A stretch of 64,000 nt of DNA from Flavobacterium sp. (GCF_043779715.1 NZ_JAYWDT010000240.1:1621-65620), one strand, 5' to 3'; counted from the stretch's first letter, positions 2,156-44,738 are shown. Numbers and translations are program-made. The notes: generated by a model from the letters alone, not told the origin.

Positions 2156-4693
2156 TTAAAGTTTTAAATTTCGCAATCGTAACGCATTTACAATAACTGA
2201 TACTGAGCTAAAAGACATTGCTAAAGCTGCAATCATCGGTGATAATAAAATTCCGAAAAAAGGATATAATACTCCAGCTGCGATTGGCACACCCAATACA
2301 TTATAGAAAAAGGCAAAAAACAGATTTTGCTTGATGTTTCTCATCACAGCATGGCTTAAATTCTTAGCTTTTACGATGCCTTGTAAATCTCCTTTTACTA
2401 AAGTGATTTTTGCACTTTCTATGGCTACATCTGTTCCAGTTCCCATTGCTATTCCAATATCGGCTTGTGCTAACGCAGGCGCATCATTTATACCATCGCC
2501 TGCCATCGCTACAATTTTTCCTTCGGATTGTAAACGTTTAATTTCATTTAATTTGTCTTCGGGTAGGCATCCTGCTTTATATGATGATAAACCCAATTCA
2601 TCTGCAACTGCTTTGGCTGTATTGACATTATCACCGGTTAGCATAATTACTTCTACACCTTGACGCATTAGTTCTTTTATAGCTGCTGCACTCGATGTTT
2701 TAATTGCATCAGTAATTGATACAAATCCTACTGCAATGCCATCTACTGCTATATAGGAAACTGTTTTTCCTAGTTTTTGTTCGGCAATAATCTTGTTTTC
2801 TAAATCGTCAGAAACTGTTGCTTTGACTTGTTCCATTAGCTTTTTATTCCCTAATGTTACTTTTTTATTGGTCACAGTTCCTGTAACCCCTTTTCCTGTA
2901 ATGGCTTCAAAATCTTTTACTTCTATTAGAGCAATAGATTTTGTTTTGGCATAATTTACTACTGCTTGTGCTAATGGATGTTCACTGTATTGGTTTATAG
3001 AAGCAATGCTTTGTAATAAATCATCCTCGTTGTTATTGGATGAATAAACTTTCTCTACAGATGGTCTTCCTTCGGTAATGGTCCCTGTTTTATCAGTAAT
3101 TAACACATTGACCTTGTTCATATTCTCTAAAGCTTCGGCATTTTTTATTAAAACCCCGGATTGTGCCCCTTTACCAACGCCTACCATTACTGACATAGGC
3201 GTTGCCAAGCCCAAAGCACAAGGGCACGCTATGATTAGTACTGCGATAGCATTTATAAAACCATAGACTAAAGCCGGTTCGGGGCCAAACTTTGCCCAAA
3301 TGAAAAAGGTAATTATCGAAATAATCACAACAATTGGCACAAAGTATTTTGCGATACTATCGGCTAATTTTTGAATTGGCGCTCTCGAACGAGAAGCATC
3401 ATTTACCATTTGAACAATTTGAGAAAGCAATGTTTCAGAACCTACTTTTTCAGCTATCATCACAAATGATTTGTTTCCATTTATTGTTCCGGCAATTACA
3501 CTATCGTCTTTCTTTTTGTCAACTGGTATCGGCTCGCCTGTAATCATGGCTTCATCAATACTACTTTCGCCATCGGTTATTTTTCCATCTACAGGAATTT
3601 TATCTCCGGGTTTTACTCGTAGTAAGTCACCTTTTTTGATGTCGTGGATTGAGATTACTTTATCGCTTCCGCCAATTACCAAAGTCGCTTCTGTAGGTGC
3701 TAGTTTTAATAATTCTTTTATAGCACCGCTAGTTTGACTGTGTGCCCTGGCTTCTAACAATTGTCCCAATAAAACTAAAGTCAGGATAACTGTTGTCGCT
3801 TCGAAGTATAATAGTACTGTGCCGTGTTCCGTCTTGAATTCACTTGGAAAAATATCCGGAAAAAACATTCCGACCAAGCTAAAGAGAAACGCCACTCCTG
3901 TACCAATTCCGATAAGAGTGAACATATTCAAATTCCATGTAATTATTGACTTCCAGGCCCGTACAAAAAATATCCAACAAGCATAAAAAACAACAGGTAG
4001 TGAAAGAATTAATTGTACCCAATTCCATTTTGAAGCATCCATTAGTTTTAGTAAAGGATTATTGTGTGCCATTTCTATCATTGCAATTGTAAAAATGGGA
4101 ACGGTAAATACGACCGCAATTTTCATTTTTTTAACCAAATTTTTATACGTTTTCTGGTCTTCGCTTTCGCTTGGTTCCATTGGAACTAAATCCATTCCGC
4201 AAATAGGACATGAACCAGAACCTTCTTGAATTACTTCGGGATGCATTGGACACGTATATAACGTTTTACTCACCATTAACTCTGGTGCTTTAACTAAATC
4301 CATTCCACACACAGGACAATCGCCTGCCTTGTCGTACACTTTTTCGCCTTCGCAATGCATTGGGCAATAATACTTCCCTTGGGTATTGGTTGGAATAACA
4401 GTTTCTTTTTTATGATCGTTGGAATGCATGGAGCAACATGATTTTTCCGAAGTTTCATTCGTTGTACTATGCTCCTTGGTTTTACCGTTGCTCATTTCTA
4501 TGGTGTATTTTCCCACTGCTGTCAAAGCTTCCTGTAGCTTTTCTGTTGGAATGTGCTTTTCCATAGTTATTGTTGCTAATGGTGGATTTAATGAAACTTT
4601 TGCTTCAATACCTTCAATAGTATTCAACGTTTTTTCGACTTTAGCGCGACAACCATCGCAAGTCATTCCGGTAATGTTGTAAGTATGTATCAT
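2156..4693 (-). CDS. copA: Copper-translocating P1B-type ATPase
   Basis: N-terminal GMTCDGC HMA domain, two CPMH..CP.CGMDL HMBD repeats, TGE, CPCALGLATP, DKTGT and GDGIND motifs. Confidence 0.95.
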   Translation of the reverse strand: MIHTYNITGMTCDGCRAKVEKTLNTIEGIEAKVSLNPPLATITMEKHIPTEKLQEALTAVGKYTIEMSNGKTKEHSTTNETSEKSCCSMHSNDHKKETVIPTNTQGKYYCPMHCEGEKVYDKAGDCPVCGMDLVKAPELMVSKTLYTCPMHPEVIQEGSGSCPICGMDLVPMEPSESEDQKTYKNLVKKMKIAVVFTVPIFTIAMIEMAHNNPLLKLMDASKWNWVQLILSLPVVFYACWIFFVRAWKSIITWNLNMFTLIGIGTGVAFLFSLVGMFFPDIFPSEFKTEHGTVLLYFEATTVILTLVLLGQLLEARAHSQTSGAIKELLKLAPTEATLVIGGSDKVISIHDIKKGDLLRVKPGDKIPVDGKITDGESSIDEAMITGEPIPVDKKKDDSVIAGTINGNKSFVMIAEKVGSETLLSQIVQMVNDASRSRAPIQKLADSIAKYFVPIVVIISIITFFIWAKFGPEPALVYGFINAIAVLIIACPCALGLATPMSVMVGVGKGAQSGVLIKNAEALENMNKVNVLITDKTGTITEGRPSVEKVYSSNNNEDDLLQSIASINQYSEHPLAQAVVNYAKTKSIALIEVKDFEAITGKGVTGTVTNKKVTLGNKKLMEQVKATVSDDLENKIIAEQKLGKTVSYIAVDGIAVGFVSITDAIKTSSAAAIKELMRQGVEVIMLTGDNVNTAKAVADELGLSSYKAGCLPEDKLNEIKRLQSEGKIVAMAGDGINDAPALAQADIGIAMGTGTDVAIESAKITLVKGDLQGIVKAKNLSHAVMRNIKQNLFFAFFYNVLGVPIAAGVLYPFFGILLSPMIAALAMSFSSVSVIVNALRLRNLKL

Positions 4694-4769
4694 CTTTTAT
4701 AATTTTAATACAAATTTCTATCATAACCGATTTTTGCATTTGCATAATTTTGGGTTTGATATGCAAAAT

Positions 4770-7557: not shown

Positions 7558-8430
7558 TTATTTGATAGTTTCAACAGTTTTACCACAACTTAACATCATT
7601 GAGCCGTAGTATGGATTTTTGACTGCATTTTCTTTACTTAACCAATTGGCACCTTTACCATCGTTAAACATAGGACAATATTGATAGTACACTGGAGTTT
7701 CATATTTAGAAACTTTCATCAATGTGTAAATATCTTTGGATAACGTTGTAAAATGATCGCGTTGGTGTTTCACATCTTTTGTATCGGCAATGTGTTCCGC
7801 ATCTTCTTTTATCGTATTTAGAACTTTCATCCATACCATGTGAACGTCCATATCGAGTTTGTCCATTTTTACATTATTGATAGCTGTTACTAGTTCTTTT
7901 GAAGCTAAGGCTGTGTTATCTCCATTAGAAGCAATCAACGCATCTTTTATCAAAAAGTAACTATCAAAAACTAATTTTAATTGATTTTCTTTTTGAGAAG
8001 TCATTTGTGGCATATCTGAATGATTAGCATGATTGTCGTGATTGTTGGTTTCTGTAACAGCTTTTGGTACTTCTTTTACAGCTACTTTAGCTGTACGCTC
8101 ATATTGACAACATCCGTGAAGATTGCTGTATACATCATCTGGAGCGAGAAATTTATCACTATCGTAACCAACTAGTGCAATTCTTTTTAGAATTTCGTCT
8201 TGATTGGTCTTTTTAGCATCATAGGTTAGTGTTGCCATTTGAGTATCTTTATTCCAATCGACATTGGCGACTTTTTTAAGATTTCCGGCTTTTTCGATTT
8301 TGGTTTCGCACATGCCACAGTTACCGTAAATTTTTACACTTTCGGTTTTGGCATTTTTTATTTGCGCATTACTTGTAGTTGATAGCAATAGACAAATTGC
8401 CATCATTATTTTCATAAATGAATTTTTCAT
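7558..8430 (-). CDS. HMA (MerP-like) + DUF3347-like metal-binding protein
   Basis: GNCGMC HMA motif, HGCCQY, His-rich linker, YCPM..GANWLS..NPYYGSMMLSCG. Confidence 0.85.
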   Translation of the reverse strand: MKNSFMKIMMAICLLLSTTSNAQIKNAKTESVKIYGNCGMCETKIEKAGNLKKVANVDWNKDTQMATLTYDAKKTNQDEILKRIALVGYDSDKFLAPDDVYSNLHGCCQYERTAKVAVKEVPKAVTETNNHDNHANHSDMPQMTSQKENQLKLVFDSYFLIKDALIASNGDNTALASKELVTAINNVKMDKLDMDVHMVWMKVLNTIKEDAEHIADTKDVKHQRDHFTTLSKDIYTLMKVSKYETPVYYQYCPMFNDGKGANWLSKENAVKNPYYGSMMLSCGKTVETIK

Positions 8431-8614
8431 TATACATAAAATTGTAATCAAAGTGGTTTACCTTGATTGATTGATAAAATAAATTTGAATAAAAAACAGT
8501 TGAGAAAGAATTTAATTTCGATACCAATAATGGTATTAAAAATAATATTAAACTGTTAAATTGAATAGCAAAACGCTATGAATTTGACACACTTATGGCT
8601 GTCAAAATTTGGAT

Positions 8615-8992
8615 TTAGCTTATTTTAGGAATTAGCCAAATGGAATAAAAACCATCTGAGATAGATGGTATTGTGTATAAAAATTTAACTTTCTCGATTG
8701 AAGAATAGCTGAACATATAATTTTTAAAAATAATTTCAGATAAAAAGCTTACTGAAGAAGAAGGACATGTTGAAGAACATCCACATTTTGAGTGACCGCA
8801 ATTGCCTTTGCAATCTTTGTTGTCGTTATCTTTTGAATTGTCGTTATCACAACAACTCTTTTTTTCCTTTTTAGTAGAGGAAACTTCTTTTTTACAAGAA
8901 CTCTTTTCTGATCCTTTACCACAAGCCATAGCAATGTTAGGCATAATTAACATGCCTAATAAAACTACAAGTATGATGTGGTATTTTTTCAT
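8615..8992 (-). CDS. Cys-rich small hypothetical protein with signal-like N-terminus
   Basis: KSCCDN..DCKGNCGHSKCGCSSTC; first gene of the HMA operon. Confidence 0.65.
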   Translation of the reverse strand: MKKYHIILVVLLGMLIMPNIAMACGKGSEKSSCKKEVSSTKKEKKSCCDNDNSKDNDNKDCKGNCGHSKCGCSSTCPSSSVSFLSEIIFKNYMFSYSSIEKVKFLYTIPSISDGFYSIWLIPKIS

Positions 8993-9120
8993 TTATATAT
9001 TAAAACAGTACAAAACTAATTAAAATTTATTGCCTTATGTTAAAATTGTTGTTAAATATGTGTTTTTCACTAGTCAGTTTATTCTTCTATAACTTTATCT
9101 TCATTTAAACTGTATGCGTT

Positions 9121-10083
9121 TTATCGATGAAAATCTGTTTTAAATTCTTTTGGATTTATTGATTTTTCATCAAACTCAAAATAAAATGCTGTTGGTGCAA
9201 TATAATTAGGATATTTTTTTATGCCCTGCATATCACATTGCAAATTGTAAAATAAAATTTTACCTTTATATTCATTAACTACATAAAAATTCTTTGCAAA
9301 CCATCGCATTTTGTTAGCCAATTCAGCATCAATTTTGTTTAATAAATTGTCATTAATTCTAAATTTTTGAAAGTTAATTGTATCGTTTGCTTTGTAACTA
9401 TTTAGTTCTCCCATATAAATGAATGTATCTGTTTTTCCTAAACCATACCATTTTCCGTTTCCGTTTGTTACAGGAACTGTCATTATAGCGATAGGTTTTA
9501 TACCTTTTTTGGCAAAGGCGCTTTCAAATTGTTTATTTATACTTTGTTTATGAATTAAAGTAAACAATAAGTAACTAGTTGAAAATGCAAAACATAACTT
9601 AAAAATTAGATTTCTGTAAGTTTTTGTTTTAAAGATATTAAGTATGGATAGAACACCTATTAGAAGTGGTATTGAATAAACCAAATCAACTATTGTTATA
9701 TTGTTTAGTGCTACTCGTGTGTTGTTGAAAGGCAAAAATAATTGTGTTCCATAAGGTGTGAAAATATCTAACATTAAATGTGACATTAAAGAAAGTAGCG
9801 TAAAAGTGAGTAGTCTTAAAAATGGTATTTCTTTTGCCCACGATTGACGCCTAAAAATTACTGCTAACAAAACACTACTTAATGTACAAAATAAAATGGA
9901 ATGTGTGAATCCCCTATGAACTCCAATCTTTTGAAATTCATTGAAAAAAGGTAAAAAAACGACATCAATATCAGGTAGGTTAGCAATTAACGCTCCAAAC
10001 AAAATTGTTTTTTTAGTGCTTTTTTTTCCTAAAACTAGTTGAGAGACTGAAGCTCCTAATAATCCGTGTGTGATTGAGTCCAT
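9121..10083 (-). CDS. Membrane-bound metal-dependent hydrolase (YdjM/DUF457-like)
   Basis: MDSITH, PDID, HRGFTHS and SHLMLD..TPYGT motifs. Confidence 0.85.
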   Translation of the reverse strand: MDSITHGLLGASVSQLVLGKKSTKKTILFGALIANLPDIDVVFLPFFNEFQKIGVHRGFTHSILFCTLSSVLLAVIFRRQSWAKEIPFLRLLTFTLLSLMSHLMLDIFTPYGTQLFLPFNNTRVALNNITIVDLVYSIPLLIGVLSILNIFKTKTYRNLIFKLCFAFSTSYLLFTLIHKQSINKQFESAFAKKGIKPIAIMTVPVTNGNGKWYGLGKTDTFIYMGELNSYKANDTINFQKFRINDNLLNKIDAELANKMRWFAKNFYVVNEYKGKILFYNLQCDMQGIKKYPNYIAPTAFYFEFDEKSINPKEFKTDFHR

Positions 10084-36633: not shown

Positions 36634-36666
36634 AATATGGGTTGTCAATTTTTGACAGCCCATATT
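36634..36666. terminator. Bidirectional hairpin between convergent lipoprotein and rteC genes
   Basis: AATATGGGTTGTCAA-TTT-TTGACAGCCCATATT, 15-bp stem with one G-U pair. Confidence 0.75.
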
Positions 36667-37507
36667 AATTTTCGTCAGCATCTTCCATGCGCAGTATTAG
36701 TTTTTCTTTTAAGGTGTTTAGGAATTTTGTTCTTTCTGATTTTCTAGTACGGATTTCTAGAAAGGCACGGTTGAATTGTCCTAAATTGATATTGAAAGTA
36801 GTTTCAAAAAAAGTGGTTACTTCTTTTAGTTCGGATGTGCCGTGATTAAAAACACCTTCGGTGTGCAGTGCATAAATTAATTCGATTAGTCCCACTTTTG
36901 ATCCAGTCCATTTTTGAGTTTTGGGGTTTATGACATTAGTAATGGTTTCTTCTTTTTGTTCTAGTTTTAAAATCTCATTATCTATGTAGCTTTTTATCTT
37001 TTCGTTTGCTAGAATTTTAGCTACTTTATAATCGTGTGATGTTGAAAATCTATTATCTGCTTGAAAGTAGAAGCTGTCCAATGTATGCCTTAAATCGTGC
37101 TTTCCTCGTAGAAAATATTTGTGATCTAAACTTTTATTATCCGTTCTGTAATATTTGTAGAAGTCTTTATTCTCATTATAAAACGTTTGCAGTTTGACTA
37201 GTTCGAGATTGAAGTATTTTCGGATTGCTTTTTTGGAACCGAATGGCTTATTGGTTTCTATATTGTAGATTTCGTTGTAGTAAATTAGTTTGGCCGCAAA
37301 TTGCGGTTTGGTATCGCGAAAGAAACTAATTTCCTCTGATTTGTTTGTAAACGTATGCTTTAGGAATTTTGTTTTCAGGTTTTCAAAAATTGGAATAAGC
37401 GTTTTGATTGCTAATTCTGCGTATTGAACTGTATTGTCTGTTTCGGAATGAATGCCTTGTAGTTGTTTGTCTAGTTCAGACATTAGTTGTTCGGAAAACA
37501 ATTTCAT
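36665..37507 (-). CDS. rteC: RteC-domain regulator of Bacteroidota conjugative elements
   Basis: EEI.FFR..KPQ..KLIYY; WTGSKVGLIELIYAL; RK..RTKFL..LKE.L. Confidence 0.88.
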   Translation of the reverse strand: MKLFSEQLMSELDKQLQGIHSETDNTVQYAELAIKTLIPIFENLKTKFLKHTFTNKSEEISFFRDTKPQFAAKLIYYNEIYNIETNKPFGSKKAIRKYFNLELVKLQTFYNENKDFYKYYRTDNKSLDHKYFLRGKHDLRHTLDSFYFQADNRFSTSHDYKVAKILANEKIKSYIDNEILKLEQKEETITNVINPKTQKWTGSKVGLIELIYALHTEGVFNHGTSELKEVTTFFETTFNINLGQFNRAFLEIRTRKSERTKFLNTLKEKLILRMEDADEN

Positions 37508-37708: not shown

Positions 37709-38698
37709 TTAAGAGAAAGTTTCTCTATCGACTTTCCAGTCGACTTTCTCTAGTCTTTCCTTTACCGTATTAAGAGTTGCCAAGATTTGTTTTTCGGTTG
37801 GTAGTTCTCCATATACTAATTCTTTGAATGTTGTATTGTAGGTATTGCGTAATTGATTCCAAGTGTTTTCAATGTTGGCATAAATCATAGCTATTGCCGG
37901 ATGATTGTCGAGCCAACCGTTATTATTCTTAAAACTTATTACATCGTCATTTGCAACAATTAGCAATAAACTGTCAAACTCATTTGATAGGAAAAAAGTC
38001 TTAATTTCTTCTTTCTCCAACAATTTATGTATGTCGTAAATGTGTCTGATTTTGTTGTTTAAGTCGGTAATTGGATCTTCGGTAAATGAAAAACGCATTA
38101 AGCTCATTATTTTTTCACAAAGTGTGCGCTCCAGACTTAATACAAGGACTTCGAATGGATTTAAATTGTATTGGTTTATCAATTCTTCTTGGTTGTTTTC
38201 TTTCATCATTTCTGAGACAAAGGAAGTGACTGTTGCATTAGTATATGGTTCGAAGCTTCCTAACCAAGTAGATTCTACAATGATAATATCACGAACTTGA
38301 CCAAATTGACCTTCAAAGGTTTTGGTGTAGCTGTGTGCTGTTTTTCGAATCATTCCCATTTTATTTGTAATTCCTTCCACCTCAATTTCTGGTAAAATTT
38401 CGGCAACTACATTTGAAATTTTCTTGATTTTGGTTTTTAACTGATTTCCAGTTTCTGCCTCATTTCTGAGAATGACCATATCAATATCTTCTGAAAATCG
38501 TTCGATTATGTTGTAGCATTTTGATAATGCTGTTCCGCCTTTAAAGACAGCTTCCTTTCCAATATCCGAAGTAAAAATTCGGTGTAATGCCAGTGTAACC
38601 CAGTAATCTTTTTCGACATAAATTTCCTTAATTCCTTTTTGCTGTGCTGTTGCAAGAATTGCATCGTTATATAGCTCTTTATTTTCGTGTAGTGTCAT
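37709..38698 (-). CDS. AbiEii/AbiGii-type nucleotidyltransferase toxin (type IV TA)
   Basis: EKDYWVT, FKGGTALSK, RFSEDID, RHIYDI. Confidence 0.92.
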   Translation of the reverse strand: MTLHENKELYNDAILATAQQKGIKEIYVEKDYWVTLALHRIFTSDIGKEAVFKGGTALSKCYNIIERFSEDIDMVILRNEAETGNQLKTKIKKISNVVAEILPEIEVEGITNKMGMIRKTAHSYTKTFEGQFGQVRDIIIVESTWLGSFEPYTNATVTSFVSEMMKENNQEELINQYNLNPFEVLVLSLERTLCEKIMSLMRFSFTEDPITDLNNKIRHIYDIHKLLEKEEIKTFFLSNEFDSLLLIVANDDVISFKNNNGWLDNHPAIAMIYANIENTWNQLRNTYNTTFKELVYGELPTEKQILATLNTVKERLEKVDWKVDRETFS

Positions 38699-39420
38699 AC
38701 TATGTTCCAGTTTTTGGCATTCGGTAAAATATCTTCGGTAATTTTATATTCATATTGCGAAAGTGGGTTTAGACTTTCTTTTAAAGGCTTTATTTCGTTG
38801 GCTATTTCAAAATATTCAATTATTGCTCCTAAAATTGCACGAACTCTTGGTGGGTATTTTAAGGCGTATTTTACCAGCAGATTTTTATCTTTTTCACTCC
38901 ATTTTTTCATTTCGTTTGCTAAAAGTAGCACTGCTGATCTTTTATTCATATCTGGAATTTGCTTAAAATCCTTTAGTGCGTCTAAAATTTCTAATATGTA
39001 GTAGTTTTTATCAGAAACATCGATGTAACTTTTTACAGGTTTTCCTTTTATATTTCCGATGGAAACAAAAATTCGTTTGTCTCGGCTTGCAATTTTAATG
39101 ACTTTAGGTACTTGTGTTGTTAAGCCCAGTCGATTGTATAAACTTAGTCCGGTTATGTATGCAATTCTTTTATCATTTTCGAATAGATAGTTTTTTAAAA
39201 GTTCTTCTTCTCTTGGTTTTAATTCACCAAAAACAGTTTGTTTTGGTTTGTAAAACACTCCGGTAGATGCGCGCTTTAACATTCCTTTCTTTATTAAACG
39301 CTCTAATGTTTTAGCTGTAGCAGCGTATTCCTCTGATTTTACAGCAAGTGTTTGATAGGTGAATGTAGTGCCTATTGGCAGCTTTTTTACTTTGTTTTCT
39401 ATTTTACTTGAAATTGTCAT
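38695..39420 (-). CDS. AbiEi-like/DUF6088-type antitoxin (wHTH)
   Basis: N-terminal wHTH, YITGLSLYNRLGLTTQVP; 4-nt overlap with the toxin gene. Confidence 0.85.
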   Translation of the reverse strand: MTISSKIENKVKKLPIGTTFTYQTLAVKSEEYAATAKTLERLIKKGMLKRASTGVFYKPKQTVFGELKPREEELLKNYLFENDKRIAYITGLSLYNRLGLTTQVPKVIKIASRDKRIFVSIGNIKGKPVKSYIDVSDKNYYILEILDALKDFKQIPDMNKRSAVLLLANEMKKWSEKDKNLLVKYALKYPPRVRAILGAIIEYFEIANEIKPLKESLNPLSQYEYKITEDILPNAKNWNIV

Positions 39421-39605: not shown

Positions 39606-39634
39606 GATAGCACGGTTGTTTCAACCGTGCTATC
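39606..39634 (-). terminator. Hairpin terminator of the CBASS-like operon
   Basis: Perfect 13-bp stem GATAGCACGGTTG-TTT-CAACCGTGCTATC just past the stop at 39649. Confidence 0.75.
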
Positions 39635-39648
39635 AATTTATTTGTTAA

Positions 39649-40005
39649 TTAAACTAACTCAGTATTCCGTCTGATAAGTAGATTAGGAATATTTTGGAGT
39701 GTGTTTTTAAGTCTTATTGTTTTGCTTTTGACAACTGATTTTATAGAATAATAAATGCAAAAAATAGCCAATAAGCTTATTAAACAATGAAACAGCTTTT
39801 GGAGTTTGAAGCCGGAATTTATCCAACTTATTACAGCAACACAAAAATATACTACTGTAATTATCAGTAAAGCTAATAAAACCAATAAACTAGCTATGAA
39901 AAATTTAATATCAAATTGAATCCCTGCAAGTGGATTGATGATAATTAATTTTTGAAGTATTGGTAGAAAAAAGATAAAAGTAGTAAAGAGTAATTTTTGT
40001 TTCAT
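39649..40005 (-). CDS. Small multi-TM membrane protein, translationally coupled to the second nucleotidyltransferase
   Basis: Three hydrophobic segments; TAATG stop/start overlap at 40005. Confidence 0.55.
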   Translation of the reverse strand: MKQKLLFTTFIFFLPILQKLIIINPLAGIQFDIKFFIASLLVLLALLIITVVYFCVAVISWINSGFKLQKLFHCLISLLAIFCIYYSIKSVVKSKTIRLKNTLQNIPNLLIRRNTELV

Positions 40006-41084
40006 TATTGATGAAATATTTCTTTAGTATAATGTGGATTTGATTTGATTTTAGAAATATCATTGACTACAACGCTCAAAATGTTTTGCTTGCTAGAATA
40101 ATCAATGTTGTTTAGTAAATTATGATTGGAATTAGCATAGTCTAAAATCCTATTTTTAGAAAATTTAAATGCAATATGCTCCATACACCTTTTCAAATTT
40201 TCACTAATTGAAGATTCATTTCCAAAATTGTTTACAGATAATGCTTCAAGACATAACTGCTCAATTACTATATTATTTAGGTCTAAATTATTTCTATCCC
40301 TATATGCTTTTAATGTTTTAATAACATCCCTAACTCTAGGTTTATTAATTAGTAGTTTTTTTTGAATAGCAACATTAGTTTTAAAACTCTTGCCACTTTG
40401 CCAAAAATAGTTTGGACGAATATATAAGTTTAACTTTTGATCTATTTTATAATTATCAATTTCTTTACCGTAAGCGATATCTAGTTTATGATTACAATCA
40501 GTTCCCTCAAAAATTAAACTTGTTACTCTTCTTCGCTTTATTACTTTCGCTTTTTCTCCAAATAAATCTTCGATTTTGTTATGAATCTCATTTGATAAAT
40601 TTGATAGATTTCCGAACTGATTTTCTTTTTTTATCGGTAAAACAATATCAGAATCGAAAGTGCCTGCAATCGCTGTCTTTTTAGTCAGAGAACCTACACT
40701 CTCTGGATAATTGACTAGTTGGTCCTCAAACGCATCATATAAAGTGGCTTTAACTTCCTTAGTAATTGATTTTAATTCCAGCAATTTCGTTGGATTTGAA
40801 TTTACATTTTGCGTTGCAAGTATATTTTTAAGGAAAGTATCACTTGAAAATGGTTTTTTAGCATCTTCCTGAAAATTGAATTTATAGATTTCATTTCCTA
40901 TGAAACCTCCTGCAATTCCTAAAATCGCTGCTTTTTTTACTGTTTGGAATCCGTTATAATTATCCAACGTTAACTTTTGTCCCTGTTTTTTTAACCGTTC
41001 TTTCTGTTGATAATAATCCAAAATGGATGCTAATACAAATGCCACAATGACTCCTGTAACAATGTGTTTATCTTGTTTTCTCAT
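40005..41084 (-). CDS. Second cGAS/DncV-like (SMODS/OAS-like) nucleotidyltransferase with N-terminal hydrophobic/glycine-zipper segments
   Basis: GSLTKKTAIAGTFDSDIVL (GS..K.T...D.D), third Asp in KLDIAYG, KTN...Q, RDVIKTLKAY. Confidence 0.78.
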   Translation of the reverse strand: MRKQDKHIVTGVIVAFVLASILDYYQQKERLKKQGQKLTLDNYNGFQTVKKAAILGIAGGFIGNEIYKFNFQEDAKKPFSSDTFLKNILATQNVNSNPTKLLELKSITKEVKATLYDAFEDQLVNYPESVGSLTKKTAIAGTFDSDIVLPIKKENQFGNLSNLSNEIHNKIEDLFGEKAKVIKRRRVTSLIFEGTDCNHKLDIAYGKEIDNYKIDQKLNLYIRPNYFWQSGKSFKTNVAIQKKLLINKPRVRDVIKTLKAYRDRNNLDLNNIVIEQLCLEALSVNNFGNESSISENLKRCMEHIAFKFSKNRILDYANSNHNLLNNIDYSSKQNILSVVVNDISKIKSNPHYTKEIFHQ

Positions 41085-41094
41085 AATTACTCTT

Positions 41095-41517
41095 TTATTC
41101 TATATGTTCGCCTCCGCCCAGCCATTTTCCAGTTGTATGCCATAGTTCATAATAATACAGCCATAAATACGTCCACGGAATAATTGTTGTACTAATATAA
41201 TTTTTCCTAGTAAATTCAGAATACTTTGGCATATAAAGACACAATGTTTCCTGTGAATACATGTGAGGTATTTTCTCACCAGATTCATTTACCACTAAGA
41301 TAGGATTAATTACTCTAACTTGAATAGGTTTTAAAAGATGAAACTTAATTTCAATAGTATACTTTTCACTTCTAGTTGTTGGCTGTATTATACCAGTAGC
41401 TTTAAGCTGCAAAGCGTCAAAATTGACTTTCCATGAAGAGTACTTTGCTTTGATAGTATTTACTTGCTCTACTATCGTTTTATCCCTGTTCAAATTTTTA
41501 ATCTTCATTATCTCCAA
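41095..41517 (-). CDS. E2 (ubiquitin-conjugating-like) protein of short type II CBASS (Cap2-like, E2 only)
   Basis: IPHMYSQETLCLY (PH..Y..LC), TIIPW..LWLYYYELW..TGKWLGGGEH; overlaps the CD-NTase. Confidence 0.8.
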   Translation of the reverse strand: MEIMKIKNLNRDKTIVEQVNTIKAKYSSWKVNFDALQLKATGIIQPTTRSEKYTIEIKFHLLKPIQVRVINPILVVNESGEKIPHMYSQETLCLYMPKYSEFTRKNYISTTIIPWTYLWLYYYELWHTTGKWLGGGEHIE

Positions 41518-42637
41518 AAAAAGTATTTGATTTTATGGGAGCTATTGAAGCCACACCCAATGCACCTAATGTTTCCGTTTTTTTATCTATTCCTAATTGA
41601 TTATTATTTCTTGCCTTATCAATCACATCTGTCTGCGAAATTTGTGCCTTCATATACAAATCATCACCGAATAAGTCTTTTAATATCCTACCTTCAGTTA
41701 TAATTCCATTTTCTTTTTTAAGTTCCTGCCATTGCACATAAAGATGTTCGCAAAAGGCTTTGAATGCTTCATAGTACTTTGGCTCACTTTCCCATTTGTC
41801 TGTAAAATCTTCTTCGGCATTTACTGGATTGAGTACTTTAATCCTAGCTGGAATATTGAAAGTATTTCTTCTTATCTGATTGACAATATTTTCTACTGCT
41901 AAAAATATACTATCTTCACCATTATAGTATTGTCCAGCAATTGTTGTTAGAACAATGCTTGAAGTTTTATAGGTGTCATCTTTCTGAAAATAAATATCTC
42001 TATACGTCTTTATCAATTGTACTGCTCTTTGTAGCGGCTTCTTGTTTTCATAGTCATTTGAAGGTAAATTTTCGGCACGAAGTGCTTTTTCTAACAAACT
42101 TACTTTTATAGTGTTTGCTTTGTTGAGAAACCATTTTGCATAACCTCTTGGATTGGAACTAACCCAATATCCTAATTGACGGTCTGGTACACGAAGTTTA
42201 TCTTCATCCCATTCGTTTTCCTGTATTCCTGGTAAAATATCCATATGGAAATCTCCTGCATAATTTAACCTAATACAACGGTTTTTCAATTCCATTTTTT
42301 CCTTGTAAACAGAATGTTCTGACAACCTTCTTTTTAGTTCGGCATAGATTTTTTCTGGAGTATGATTATTCCATTGAGCCTTAAGATGCAGTGCAATATC
42401 TAAATCGAATTCATCTTTACCGATTGGTTTTACAGTAGTTCGAATTCTAACCGAGCCATGTGGATATAATTCATACTTAAAAGGTTTGAAAAACAGTTCA
42501 TCTGCTTCAATCCATTTTTTTATAGCTTCATAATGCTGAATCATTAAGTCATAACGTGTTTTATCCAATTGCAATGATTCAGCCATCCTATCAAGTAGGT
42601 CGTCTAATTGGATATTTTTGTCTTGAAATTGTATCAT
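41498..42637 (-). CDS. CBASS CD-NTase (cyclic oligonucleotide synthase)
   Basis: HGSVRIRTTVKP..EFDLD, FHMDILPG, SNPRGYAKWF, PLQRAVQLIK.YRD; C-terminal KSNTFFG-DNED tail. Confidence 0.92.
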   Translation of the reverse strand: MIQFQDKNIQLDDLLDRMAESLQLDKTRYDLMIQHYEAIKKWIEADELFFKPFKYELYPHGSVRIRTTVKPIGKDEFDLDIALHLKAQWNNHTPEKIYAELKRRLSEHSVYKEKMELKNRCIRLNYAGDFHMDILPGIQENEWDEDKLRVPDRQLGYWVSSNPRGYAKWFLNKANTIKVSLLEKALRAENLPSNDYENKKPLQRAVQLIKTYRDIYFQKDDTYKTSSIVLTTIAGQYYNGEDSIFLAVENIVNQIRRNTFNIPARIKVLNPVNAEEDFTDKWESEPKYYEAFKAFCEHLYVQWQELKKENGIITEGRILKDLFGDDLYMKAQISQTDVIDKARNNNQLGIDKKTETLGALGVASIAPIKSNTFFGDNED

Positions 42638-43440
42638 CTTGGTAATATTTTAAATGTATGTGGTAATATTCTAACTCCAGAAGCAGTTGCTCCTTTTTTA
42701 ATTTCTTCAGCAGTAACAAATGCTATATTATCATTATTAGCCAAAGCTTTTATCGCTTGTCTTTGAGCATCAGTTTCTATTCGTAATTCAAAAATGTCTG
42801 CATGTCTGAATTGATCAATTGGATAATCCTCGTTTCTAAGAATACCTTCCTGATGGTCAAATAGGAAAGCATACTTTATATGTTTAAAATGTTCCGCAGG
42901 TAAATAACCAGGTTCTATTAATTCCTCAAAAAATTCTCGCCAAGGGTCAATTTCTCTATTTTTCCTACTATTAAACCATTTAAAAAAATCAATCAGATTC
43001 TTTCGTTTATTTATTTTAATTCTCAAGTCATTTTCTGTAGCACTATCTCTTGGAACCTCATTGCATGGAATTATGCCAAGTTTATCGAAATTTTCTCTGT
43101 TCTCTTCTTTAAAATATTTGTAAGCACCACCTACAGGCTGAAATCCAATAAAATCTTCTTTATGCCTTTTTATCAGCATGTATTTTCCGTTATGTTCTAT
43201 TCTGAAAAGATATGCCACAGTTACCCTTACAGGAGCATTTGATTTCCATATTTTTGTTACAAGCAATTTCCAATGTTTTTTATTATCATAAAGAAATACT
43301 ATAAAATCAATAATACTTGCTATTAAAAGCCCTAAAGCAATCTTAAAAACGGTACTTTGTGCCTCACCTGTTAGGAAGACACTACAAAATATCAGTCCTG
43401 TCAAACCAATAATGAAACTTATTTTTCCTTTTACATTCAT
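42634..43440 (-). CDS. 2TM + SMODS-associated NUDIX-like effector
   Basis: Two N-terminal TM; RVTVAYLFRIE..YMLIK, FQPVGGAYK, WREFFEEL; ATGA overlap with the CD-NTase. Confidence 0.8.
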   Translation of the reverse strand: MNVKGKISFIIGLTGLIFCSVFLTGEAQSTVFKIALGLLIASIIDFIVFLYDNKKHWKLLVTKIWKSNAPVRVTVAYLFRIEHNGKYMLIKRHKEDFIGFQPVGGAYKYFKEENRENFDKLGIIPCNEVPRDSATENDLRIKINKRKNLIDFFKWFNSRKNREIDPWREFFEELIEPGYLPAEHFKHIKYAFLFDHQEGILRNEDYPIDQFRHADIFELRIETDAQRQAIKALANNDNIAFVTAEEIKKGATASGVRILPHTFKILPR

Positions 43441-43445
43441 TTTGT

Positions 43446-43670
43446 CTATCCTTTAGGTGGAAAATTATCTTTTCCATATGTATTCCTTTCTCTTATTTGC
43501 CCATTCGGTCTATGAATAAACATTTCGGATTTCTGATTGATTGCAATGTTCCTTGCAATTTTTATTGCTTCAGTCTGAGTTGAAACTACTTTAGTAGCTT
43601 TACTATTACCAGCTCCTTTTACTTCCCAATTGTCCCCTTTAGGAACAACATGTTGATTTTTCTTGCTCAT
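43446..43670 (-). CDS. DUF2188-family small protein (probable start MSKKNQHVVP)
   Basis: HVVPKGDNWEVK..TQ.EAI..AR..IH..GQIRE..YG.D.FPPKG. Confidence 0.85.
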   Translation of the reverse strand: MSKKNQHVVPKGDNWEVKGAGNSKATKVVSTQTEAIKIARNIAINQKSEMFIHRPNGQIRERNTYGKDNFPPKG

Positions 43671-43701
43671 GATGATTTTTATTAATAATTTAGTTATACT
43701 T

Positions 43702-43769
43702 TTGTTGCATATATAAGATAAACAATTGTTTTGTTGCAACAAAGATAAATATTAATTTTGATTGTTGCA
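43702..43769. promoter_or_regulatory. Candidate operator: three TTGTTGCA boxes in the divergent CBASS/HTH promoter
   Basis: Copies at 43702, 43731 (within palindrome TTGTTGCAACAA) and 43762, about 30-bp spacing. Confidence 0.55.
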
Positions 43770-43806
43770 CTAATGAAACAGTGTTTAATACATAAAACTT
43801 ATCAAC

Positions 43807-44142
43807 ATGCAATCAACACTTAACACAGACCTTTTAGCAGGAATGTTAAAAAGTAAAAGAGAAGGTAAAGGTTTACGAACTATTGCTGAAGAAATTGGAA
43901 ATGTAAGTGCAGCTACATTATCAAGGATTGAGCAAGGGAAAATTCCAGACGTAGACACCTTTATAAGTATCTGTAGTTGGCTCAAGGTTACAACCGACAC
44001 CTTTATTATTGGCGAAATCCAAAATAAAATTATTTCTAACAAAGATCATGTAGTAGCTCATCTCAGAGCAGAAAAAGAATTAAGTAAAGATACCGTCAAT
44101 ATGCTTATCAAGATGATTGACATGGCTTATGAAACTAAATAA
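43807..44142 (+). CDS. XRE-family HTH regulator (CapH-like)
   Basis: GLRTIAEEIGNVSAATLSRIEQGKIPD. Confidence 0.88.
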   Translation: MQSTLNTDLLAGMLKSKREGKGLRTIAEEIGNVSAATLSRIEQGKIPDVDTFISICSWLKVTTDTFIIGEIQNKIISNKDHVVAHLRAEKELSKDTVNMLIKMIDMAYETK

Positions 44143-44153
44143 GCGTATATCTA

Positions 44154-44738
44154 TTGGCAACGAAAACTACCCTAATTCGCGGATTTAAATCCAAAGCCGA
44201 ACGCATAGCGCTCGATTATCGTCAGAAACTTGGAGTGCATGCTTGTGCACCACTTTGCGCCTTTAAGGTTGCTAAATATTTGAGTATTCCTGTTTATAAT
44301 GCTACTGAGTTTATAACAGACGAATTTGAATTGCAAAAATTAGAAGGTAAAGTTTGTGAGGAGTATGGTTGGAGTGCTTTAACAATGCTCACTAAGGCAG
44401 GCAATCGAATTATCATCCATAACAATTTTCATACAGCTGCTCGACAGCAAAGCAATATTATGCATGAGATTGCGCATATTATTTGTGAACACGAGATTAA
44501 AGCACGTCCAGAAGGAATTGTTTTACCCCTTGGGATGCGTGATTTTGATAGAAATCAAGAGGATGAAGCAATTTATTTAGGTGCGACAATGCAATTATCA
44601 CGCCCATGTCTTTTATGGGCTAAAAAGACTAAAATGACAAATGCTGAAATTGCACGTCATTATAATGCTAGCATGGAAATGGTTAATTTTAGAATTAGCT
44701 CTACTGGAGTTAACAAACAATTTCAAAAGGCAGTTTAA
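44154..44738 (+). CDS. ImmA/IrrE-family metallopeptidase (CapP-like)
   Basis: RQQSNIMHEIAH (HExxH); QEDEA. Confidence 0.88.
   Translation: MATKTTLIRGFKSKAERIALDYRQKLGVHACAPLCAFKVAKYLSIPVYNATEFITDEFELQKLEGKVCEEYGWSALTMLTKAGNRIIIHNNFHTAARQQSNIMHEIAHIICEHEIKARPEGIVLPLGMRDFDRNQEDEAIYLGATMQLSRPCLLWAKKTKMTNAEIARHYNASMEMVNFRISSTGVNKQFQKAV

Follow-up and report, generated by a model that had tools for sequence, protein, structure and literature searches.

A second predicted CD-NTase with an N-terminal hairpin at the 3′ end of a Flavobacterium E2-CBASS operon

Systems of cyclic oligonucleotide-based antiphage signaling (CBASS) are usually pictured as consisting of one cyclase and one or more effectors, with control being exerted by Cap2/Cap3 or by HORMA/TRIP13. 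In the short type II form with a stand-alone E2 protein (E2-CBASS), the cyclases are long and mostly belong to clade G, and the Serratia marcescens protein SmE2 was found to remove a C-terminal GFP fusion while joining covalently to the cyclase tail (PMC12948482). For clade G cyclases, activation was reported to occur when phage prohead proteases cut an activation loop (PMC12991175). According to a passage in a review (PMC10419184), the effector Cap16 described by Duncan-Lowey et al. in 2021 combines two transmembrane (TM) helices with a SMODS-associated NUDIX domain (2TM-NUDIX). Here we analyzed a stretch of 64,000 nucleotides (nt) from Flavobacterium sp. (GCF_043779715.1, NZ_JAYWDT010000240.1:1621-65620), referred to as the window, in which a first-pass annotation had described a CBASS-like operon encoding two different nucleotidyltransferases. 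The core of this operon is a textbook E2-CBASS; the second enzyme, which we call NT2, represents an accessory class of nucleotidyltransferases of the cGAS/DncV-like type (CD-NTases) that is uncharacterized.

NT2 and the hairpin CD-NTases

The close family of NT2 comprises 39 proteins of ~358 amino acids (aa), every one of them from Bacteroidota. In 23 members sharing 32-100% identity, residues G131, S132, D144, D146, and D202 and an ANSNNN motif were invariant. The GS/DxD/D set was again invariant across 34 distant nucleotidyltransferases with an N-terminal hairpin (hairpin-NTases) at 20-34% identity, and the equivalent catalytic residues were invariant in a further, third family alignment as well. 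When the AlphaFold2 (AF2) model of NT2, which had a predicted local distance difference test score (pLDDT) of 87.7 and a predicted template modeling score (pTM) of 0.81, was used for a Foldseek search, the best match was E. coli CdnC (6u7b, 3.8e-9; also 6p80), followed by CdnD, cGAS, beetle cGLR, NF90/NF45, and MiD51. A profile search of the PDB with NT2 also recovered CdnC and a Mab21 protein. The ratio of nonsynonymous to synonymous substitution rates (dN/dS) between NT2 and its orthologue in Flavobacterium terrisoli was ~0.15, with dS being saturated, and the sequences thus point to purifying selection. Judged by sequence and model, NT2 is a real and apparently active protein with a CD-NTase fold. 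Its description in the first-pass annotation as a cGAS/OAS-like nucleotidyltransferase is confirmed by fold and catalytic set, with activity being predicted, and the opposite case considered there, a catalytically dead second enzyme, is at odds with the conservation of the catalytic set.

The N-terminus of NT2 was modeled as two long helices formed by residues 3-33 and 45-74. Helix 1 is hydrophobic, with KD19 values of 1.2-2.25 across the family, and helix 2 is a Gly-zipper of weak hydrophobicity (KD19 0.5-1.6); residues D23, Q27, G59, G63, and Y67 of the hairpin are invariant. As helix 2 is weakly hydrophobic, we describe NT2 as putatively membrane-anchored. The hairpin could also mean that NT2 is a second effector or a receptor, in which the hairpin would form or nucleate a membrane lesion and the CD-NTase fold would bind the primary signal. 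A Gly-zipper (G59, G63) and a polar residue such as Q27, both conserved throughout the clade, are common in membrane-active helices, the fold of NT2 resembles that of MiD51, a membrane-anchored, ADP-binding protein that is non-catalytic, and some CBASS operons encode two effectors, as do loci L111 and L133 with NucC and Mrr. However, the fact that the whole catalytic set stays strictly invariant over a very deep divergence argues for catalysis and not for mere binding, one NT2 lineage accompanies different primary cyclases, and an effector is already present in every operon. We therefore regard a role of NT2 as effector or receptor as improbable.

The wider relationships of NT2 were analyzed by a profile search over 1.84 billion cluster representatives (E ≤ 1e-3), which yielded 802 representatives, soluble cyclases included. 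The soluble relatives have a size of ~300-330 aa, and 21 of 39 sampled sequences end with F/Y-G, the hallmark of Cap2-conjugated cyclases. In a tree calculated with the hairpin removed, the 91 sampled hairpin forms fell into one clade (SH-aLRT 99) that was nested among soluble cyclases, suggesting that the hairpin-NTases are derived from ordinary soluble cyclases. The primary cyclases of three Cap2-type operons (L111, L114, L116) match the same PADLOC model as NT2 (PDLC00803, 1e-76 to 1e-80), which identifies the hairpin form as a paralogue of bona fide primary cyclases. Four further CBASS operons (L134, L141, L164, L183) contain two or three PDLC00803-type cyclases that were not classified as hairpin forms, as in the order cyclase-Cap2-Cap3-cyclase-NucC of L141. 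The clade assignment proposed in the first-pass annotation succeeded for the primary cyclase, which is CdnG-like and a homologue of SmCdnG; for NT2 a clade letter was not obtained, as PDB sequences gave only weak matches of NT2 and its soluble relatives to unnamed CD-NTases.

NT2 in CBASS operons and its possible role

The NT2 profile identified 22 genome loci, in each of which NT2 lies at the 3′ end of a CBASS operon with Cap16; taken together, about 36 Cap16 operons have NT2 as their last conserved gene. Frequently there is a 4-nt overlap with the upstream gene or a gap of 1-12 nt, and NT2 is usually translationally coupled. The commonest layout is [DUF2188]-Cap16-CdnG-E2-NT2. Locus L024 has the order CdnG-E2-Cap16-NT2, and in L027 and L030 the Pfam matches revealed the order DUF2188-cyclase-HORMA-TRIP13-Cap16-NT2, a type that is also found on the metagenome contigs L004-L009. 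A single NT2 lineage is present in HORMA/TRIP13 operons and in E2 operons, showing that NT2 is not tied to the regulator. Hairpin-NTases lacking a primary cyclase were not found in the complete loci surveyed, the exceptions being truncated contigs and one remnant (L019), in which the upstream E2 is reduced to its last 15 residues. A scan of IMG/VR revealed no relatives of NT2.

The first-pass annotation had proposed that NT2 might modify the signal of the primary cyclase or be a second conjugation target. Its position directly downstream of E2 in the window is compatible with NT2 being a second E2 substrate, and the constant presence of a primary cyclase in complete loci would fit a two-step synthesis in which NT2 modifies or extends the CdnG product. 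However, the C-terminus of NT2 has no conserved Gly, the final residues being C, K, L, Q, D, and others, and NT2 is likewise encoded in HORMA/TRIP13 operons without an E2, which makes it an unlikely E2 target. A role as modifier conflicts with the combination of one NT2 lineage with unrelated primary cyclases. We consider it quite improbable that NT2 acts in either of these ways.

In the window, the start of an open reading frame (ORF) for a TM protein overlaps the NT2 stop codon, and a hairpin then follows. This arrangement could indicate that NT2 makes up, together with the 118-aa TM protein, a type I CBASS of its own abutting the E2-CBASS, and the TM ORF indeed appears to be under purifying selection (dN/dS ~0.18, dS saturated). 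Its homologues are restricted to F. terrisoli (39-43% identity), however, meaning that the ORF is present in just 2 of ~36 NT2 operons; unrelated genes, or at four loci a DUF3892 gene, follow NT2 elsewhere, and NT2 was never seen as a stand-alone pair with any effector. As a general explanation two stacked systems are thereby ruled out, and we give this reading hardly any credence. The TM protein, which had been listed as a member of the operon, is a real ORF but a lineage-specific one and no conserved partner of NT2. The DUF3892 protein is a conserved protein of 105 aa that was found after NT2 in four Chitinophagaceae operons (L027:9096-9413, L030, L045, L057), where it takes the position held by the TM ORF in the window.

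To complement the loci found via NT2, a reverse survey was performed with the best 80 Cap16 loci. NT2 was present in 28 of them and absent from 52, and within the genus it was found in 2 of 25 genomes. The nearest operons without NT2, L037-L040 from Flavobacterium, share 65-69% (Cap16) and 71-79% (CdnG) identity with the window and are closer to it than many operons with NT2. On the Cap16 tree, the distribution of NT2 requires at least 9-11 gains or losses, and the NT2 tree is incongruent with the Cap16 tree, which rules out vertical co-evolution of the two genes.

Comparison of Chitinophagaceae operons at the DNA level gave a further indication of exchange. The type III operon L027 and the E2-type operons L048 and L057 share 74-77% DNA identity in the upstream region and DUF2188, a region in which 159 nt are also shared between L027 and the contig-truncated L045. 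Over NT2, the identity of L045, L048, and L057 to L027 amounts to 81-85%, and in the case of L045 and L057 the similarity extends ~450 nt downstream of NT2. Between DUF2188 and NT2, the signaling and effector core of L027 is unrelated to that of L045, L048, and L057, the shared blocks in L027 being located at 4134-4738 and 8001-9523. This confinement of DNA similarity to the operon ends looks like cassette exchange between conserved bookends, of which the 5′ one, DUF2188, is common to E2-type and HORMA-type operons. Survey counts, trees, and the end similarity of L027 together suggest that NT2 is an optional, exchangeable cassette at one fixed site. The first-pass annotation had named, as a finding that would speak against its reading, that the second enzyme is an independent insertion absent from syntenic operons; this applies in part, since the majority of the Cap16 operons surveyed have no NT2, but with its fixed 3′ position, usual coupling, and conserved catalytic set NT2 is neither a chance insertion nor dead. 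A second synthase is unusual relative to the literature searched but not rare in Bacteroidota. In some lineages the operon seems to be in decay. NT2 is split into two ORFs in two genomes (L021:715-1794; L029:8001-9079, on the same contig as L064), and split genes were also seen for Cap16 (L078, L081) and CdnG (L029, L054).

The distant hairpin-NTases (TMNT) are likewise located at or adjoining the 3′ end of CBASS operons. Their layouts include cyclase-Cap2-Cap3-NucC(-Mrr)-TMNT, cyclase-Cap2-Cap3-(2TM-NARF)-TMNT, cyclase-[HORMA]-TRIP13-NucC-TMNT, and cyclase-x-NucC-TMNT, and in 20 further operons a hairpin-NTase follows a NucC or 2TM-NARF effector behind a primary cyclase. The distant-family scan revealed hairpin forms at 19 of 27 loci from Bacteroidota and at one locus from Pseudomonadota. 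When mapped onto a tree of 44 operons, effector type required 5 changes and regulator type 10, and all Cap16-linked NT2 proteins formed one clade (support 94). The NT2 lineage thus tracks effector type better than regulator type. The idea that NT2 is a NUDIX-specific partner is weakened by the distant hairpin-NTases behind NucC and 2TM-NARF and beside a Cmr locus. In the latter case (L112:3059-4132), the hairpin CD-NTase lies right after the Cmr5, RAMP protein, and Cas6b genes of a type III CRISPR locus and precedes bpMoxR AAA and VWA genes, with a cyclase-like ORF further on; this is a possible link of the hairpin-NTase class to cyclic oligoadenylate (cOA) signaling.

We favor a catalytic role of NT2 that is linked to the effector branch rather than the E2/HORMA control branch. 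In the mechanism considered here, the CdnG-type cyclase would be checked and primed by the stand-alone E2, which in studied relatives cuts behind the conserved C-terminal Gly and becomes covalently attached to the cyclase tail. Upon infection CdnG would make a cyclic nucleotide, the trigger possibly being the cutting of the activation loop by a phage protease as in studied clade G enzymes, and this nucleotide would activate the Cap16-type 2TM-NUDIX effector and lead to disruption of the inner membrane, as in studied relatives. The operon would be controlled by a CapH/CapP-like pair of repressor and peptidase. Added to this core, NT2 would act as a catalytically competent paralogue anchored by its N-terminal hairpin, with a product that may be matched to the effector of the operon and would provide a second input channel to the same effector; this channel could respond to membrane events. 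As NT2 lost the Gly tail, it would be independent of control by E2/Cap2 or HORMA/TRIP13. We put forward this role of an auxiliary membrane-localized synthase, supplying a second effector input free of Cap2/HORMA control, as a tentative proposal whose chances we rate at slightly below even.

Several observations weigh against this proposal. Near-identical NT2 proteins accompany CdnG-like and CdnC-like primary cyclases and Cap16 proteins with ~27% identity, and as one lineage serves such different cyclases and effectors, it is awkward to assume that NT2 makes the exact ligand of each effector. Operons without NT2 are common, which means that the effector does not need it. NT2 falls below the curated cut-offs of the Pfam SMODS model (16.9 bits versus 26.5) and of the NCBIfam CBASS cyclase model (22.5 versus 200), and the PADLOC library, in which it matches PDLC00803, carries no curated cut-off. 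The weak hydrophobicity of helix 2 leaves membrane insertion itself inferred, the tracking of effector type is based on loci from three different searches and on quick trees, and for every member the role assigned to NT2 is read from sequences and models.

The main rival to an auxiliary synthase is a guard or decoy function like that of Panoptes, in which NT2 would constitutively make a membrane nucleotide that restrains the effector or soaks up phage sponges or nucleases (Acb-type), so that phage counter-defense against CBASS signals would be detected or blunted. NT2 is optional and horizontally swapped, as expected of an add-on in an arms race, it has neither a regulatory Gly tail nor a dedicated regulator, which fits constitutive activity, and its lineage follows the effector and not the sensor module. 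There is also a precedent for the combination of a constitutive nucleotide synthase with a 2TM effector (PMC12657218). On the other hand, NT2 is not an mCpol enzyme and the operons have no SAVED effector, relatives of NT2 also accompany the soluble nuclease NucC, for which decoy inhibition is without precedent, and the surveyed loci contained no two-gene guard pair with NT2 that stood apart from a CBASS operon. We consider a guard or decoy function unlikely, albeit deserving attention ahead of the other alternatives.

In broader terms, the hairpin CD-NTases might constitute a distinct CBASS accessory class, acting as membrane-resident second sensor or as decoy/guard synthase with effector-matched output and spread among Bacteroidota as a cassette via bookends; we regard this as possible but doubtful. 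If it holds true, single-input CBASS operons would become two-input operons or would become resistant to phage counter-defense, the class would have reached operons of type II, short type II, and type III in Bacteroidota as a cassette, and the bookends DUF2188 (5′) and NT2 (3′) would provide the recombination handles by which the CBASS core is exchanged. With a second cyclase that is conserved and has an intact catalytic set, the one-cyclase picture of CBASS would gain a layer. This layer might be an additional trigger, an amplification of the signal at the membrane, or protection from phage sponges and nucleases. The bookend pattern is a concrete example of how defense operon cores may swap by recombination. 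In the literature searched, whose coverage did not include key comparative genomics, no CBASS operon with a second membrane-anchored cyclase was found, and such fusions may have been mentioned earlier; a literature search for NARF yielded nothing. Because operons that carry NT2 and operons that lack it exist in nature at 70-80% identity, and because the catalytic residues are clear, the role of NT2 is directly testable.

The E2-CBASS core, its regulatory region and its surroundings

The six minus-strand ORFs of the first-pass annotation were all present as described and tightly packed, with neighboring operon genes overlapping or being spaced by ≤10 nt (Table 1). Its statement that the operon encodes no E1 or JAB was borne out, since Pfam and PADLOC scans of the operon ORFs gave no match to E1 (ThiF) or JAB, and its assignment to short type II, E2-only CBASS agrees with the SmCdnG, SmE2, and PADLOC matches. 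By sequence, the core is an ordinary E2-CBASS. What had been overlooked is a divergent gene pair encoding a helix-turn-helix (HTH) protein and an M78 peptidase.

Table 1. Predicted genes and elements of the CBASS locus, with positions counted from the first letter of the window
Feature	Position	Strand	Evidence
Candidate operon terminator, hairpin with 13-bp stem, directly 3′ of the last ORF	39606-39634		
TM ORF, 118 aa, three hydrophobic segments	39649-40005	minus	Without family match
NT2, second CD-NTase with N-terminal hairpin	40005-41084	minus	PADLOC cyclase PDLC00803 1.1e-35
E2-only Cap2	41095-41517	minus	PADLOC E2 6e-42; SmE2 (PDB 8hsb_B) 1.2e-15
CdnG-like CD-NTase, primary cyclase, tail KSNTFFG/DNED	41498-42637	minus	Pfam SMODS 2.6e-18; PADLOC cyclase 8.7e-153
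2TM-NUDIX effector (Cap16 type)	42634-43440	minus	PF18167 9.6e-60; PADLOC 2TM CBASS effector 1.9e-79
DUF2188 small protein, 74 aa, first operon gene	43446-43670	minus	Pfam DUF2188 1.8e-24; PADLOC PDC-S16 3e-36
Putative divergent promoter and operator region, 136 nt	43671-43806		Sequence, TGCAAC half-sites
CapH-like Xre-family HTH repressor, divergent from operon	43807-44142	plus	Pfam HTH_3 8.3e-7
CapP-like M78 (IrrE/ImmA-type) zinc peptidase, HEIAH motif	44154-44738	plus	Pfam Peptidase_M78 1.1e-13

The primary cyclase contains the motifs HGSV, DLD, and MDI, corresponding to the GS...DxD...D set, and its match to the Pfam SMODS model lies above the cut-off. The alignment with SmCdnG (8hsb_A) reaches the very C-terminus, where ...KSNTFFGD of the window protein is aligned with ...KNTFYGE. 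Of 48 distinct homologues of the primary cyclase, 47 terminate with NTF[FY]G and then 1-9 variable residues, and this conserved tail fits processing after the Gly. The suggestion that KSNTFFG-DNED is an E2-processed end is supported by this conservation and by the match to the SmCdnG tail, with cleavage being predicted. The E2 protein shows the motifs PH..Y and LC, the predicted catalytic Cys in LCLY is aligned with LCLF of SmE2, and its homologues carry PF26395 (E2-CBASS). In two Cap16-CdnG operons without a BLAST-detectable E2, an ORF of ~222-225 aa (L056:8826-9503, L058:8847-9515) overlaps the cyclase stop codon instead.

The TM-NUDIX protein, which had been proposed as a CBASS partner, corresponds to a known effector type (Cap16) according to its Pfam and PADLOC matches. 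Its split Nudix box retains R..E..REFxEE, residues R162, E163, R168, E169, E172, and E173 are invariant, and two hydropathy peaks of 2.1 and 2.4 correspond to two predicted TM helices. The AF2 model had a pLDDT of 86, and all 50 Foldseek matches listed were Nudix-fold proteins with modest scores; a PDB sequence search with the effector gave no match.

For DUF2188, an ATG at 43670 and a TTG at 43742 are candidate start codons, of which the ATG is most likely used because the homologues have 74-75 aa. DUF2188, a PADLOC candidate component (PDC-S16), opens many CBASS operons of the Cap16 type, with either kind of regulator, and is also the first gene in one NARF-type operon (L132).

The divergent HTH protein and M78 peptidase fit the layout of CapH/CapP-like regulators as judged by their sequences, and an operator role of the region between them and the operon is putative. 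The match of the peptidase to the PADLOC capP model was weak (1.3e-3), and a PDB sequence search with it gave no match. The gene pair is kept beside the related operons L032, L034, L037-40, L071, L072, and L141, and the HTH protein is 83-91% identical in related Flavobacterium loci. TGCAAC half-sites are located at 43702, 43731/43735, and 43762. The two at 43731/43735 together give a perfect palindrome, TTGTTGCAACAA (43731-43742); all of these sites are situated between the operon and the CapH-like gene. The sequence TTGTTGCA has 11 matches in the whole window, four of them inside 70 nt of the regulatory region. The half-sites are kept in six Flavobacterium operons, both with and without NT2; the exact palindrome TTGTTGCAACAA was absent from the other loci compared, in which only the TGCAAC half-sites are conserved.

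The source genome is a 2.8-Mb assembly of 283 contigs with a single CBASS. Just downstream of the operon there are an RteC-family gene (36665-37507, 9.7e-81), a family typical of conjugative transposons of Bacteroidota, and an AbiEi/AbiEii toxin-antitoxin pair (37709-39420); an S1/P1 nuclease gene, a broken reverse transcriptase gene, and a primase-like gene are further neighbors. These genes place the CBASS in a mobile defense island.

Comparison with described systems

Like the window operon, the S. marcescens SmCdnG-SmE2 system (PDB 8hsb; PMC12948482) combines a CdnG-family cyclase, whose extended C-terminus terminates in NTF[FY]G and a few more residues, with a stand-alone E2 that has a conserved Cys and with a membrane effector encoded in the same operon; E1 and JAB are lacking. 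The two differ in that sequence identity is low (E values of 2.8e-36 for the cyclase and 1.2e-15 for E2) and in that the window adds a 2TM-NUDIX protein, a leading DUF2188 gene, and a hairpin CD-NTase, none of which is mentioned for Serratia in PMC12948482. With the Cap16-type effectors the window protein shares the Pfam family PF18167, the architecture, and the PADLOC effector models. In the passage of the review dealing with these effectors (PMC10419184), they are presented as self-sufficient membrane effectors, whereas in the Cap16 loci surveyed here NT2 stands alongside in 28 of 80 operons.

The regulatory region is like that of the CapH/CapP systems (bioRxiv 10.1101/2022.04.27.489752; 10.64898/2026.05.16.725639), in which a divergent HTH repressor and an M78-type metallopeptidase are encoded beside the CBASS operon with a palindromic operator in between; the difference lies in the weak match of the window peptidase to the PADLOC capP model.

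NT2 itself invites comparison with two further systems. Type III CBASS, consisting of CdnC, HORMA, TRIP13, and an effector as in E. coli MS115-1, provides the best structural matches of NT2 in the form of CdnC, and some NT2 genes lie within HORMA/TRIP13 operons (L006, L027, L030). However, the window operon has neither HORMA nor TRIP13, and CdnC does not possess the N-terminal hairpin of NT2. Panoptes, composed of the mCpol enzyme OptS and the 2TM-SAVED protein OptE (PMC12657218), is similar in that a synthase without an obvious dedicated regulator is combined with a membrane-acting immune output, and it suggests one way in which an additional synthase might make sense. In contrast to OptS with its mCpol fold, NT2 has a cGAS/CD-NTase fold, and Pfam and PADLOC scans revealed no SAVED domain in the window operon. 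Furthermore, Panoptes is a two-gene system, whereas NT2 is embedded in full CBASS operons.

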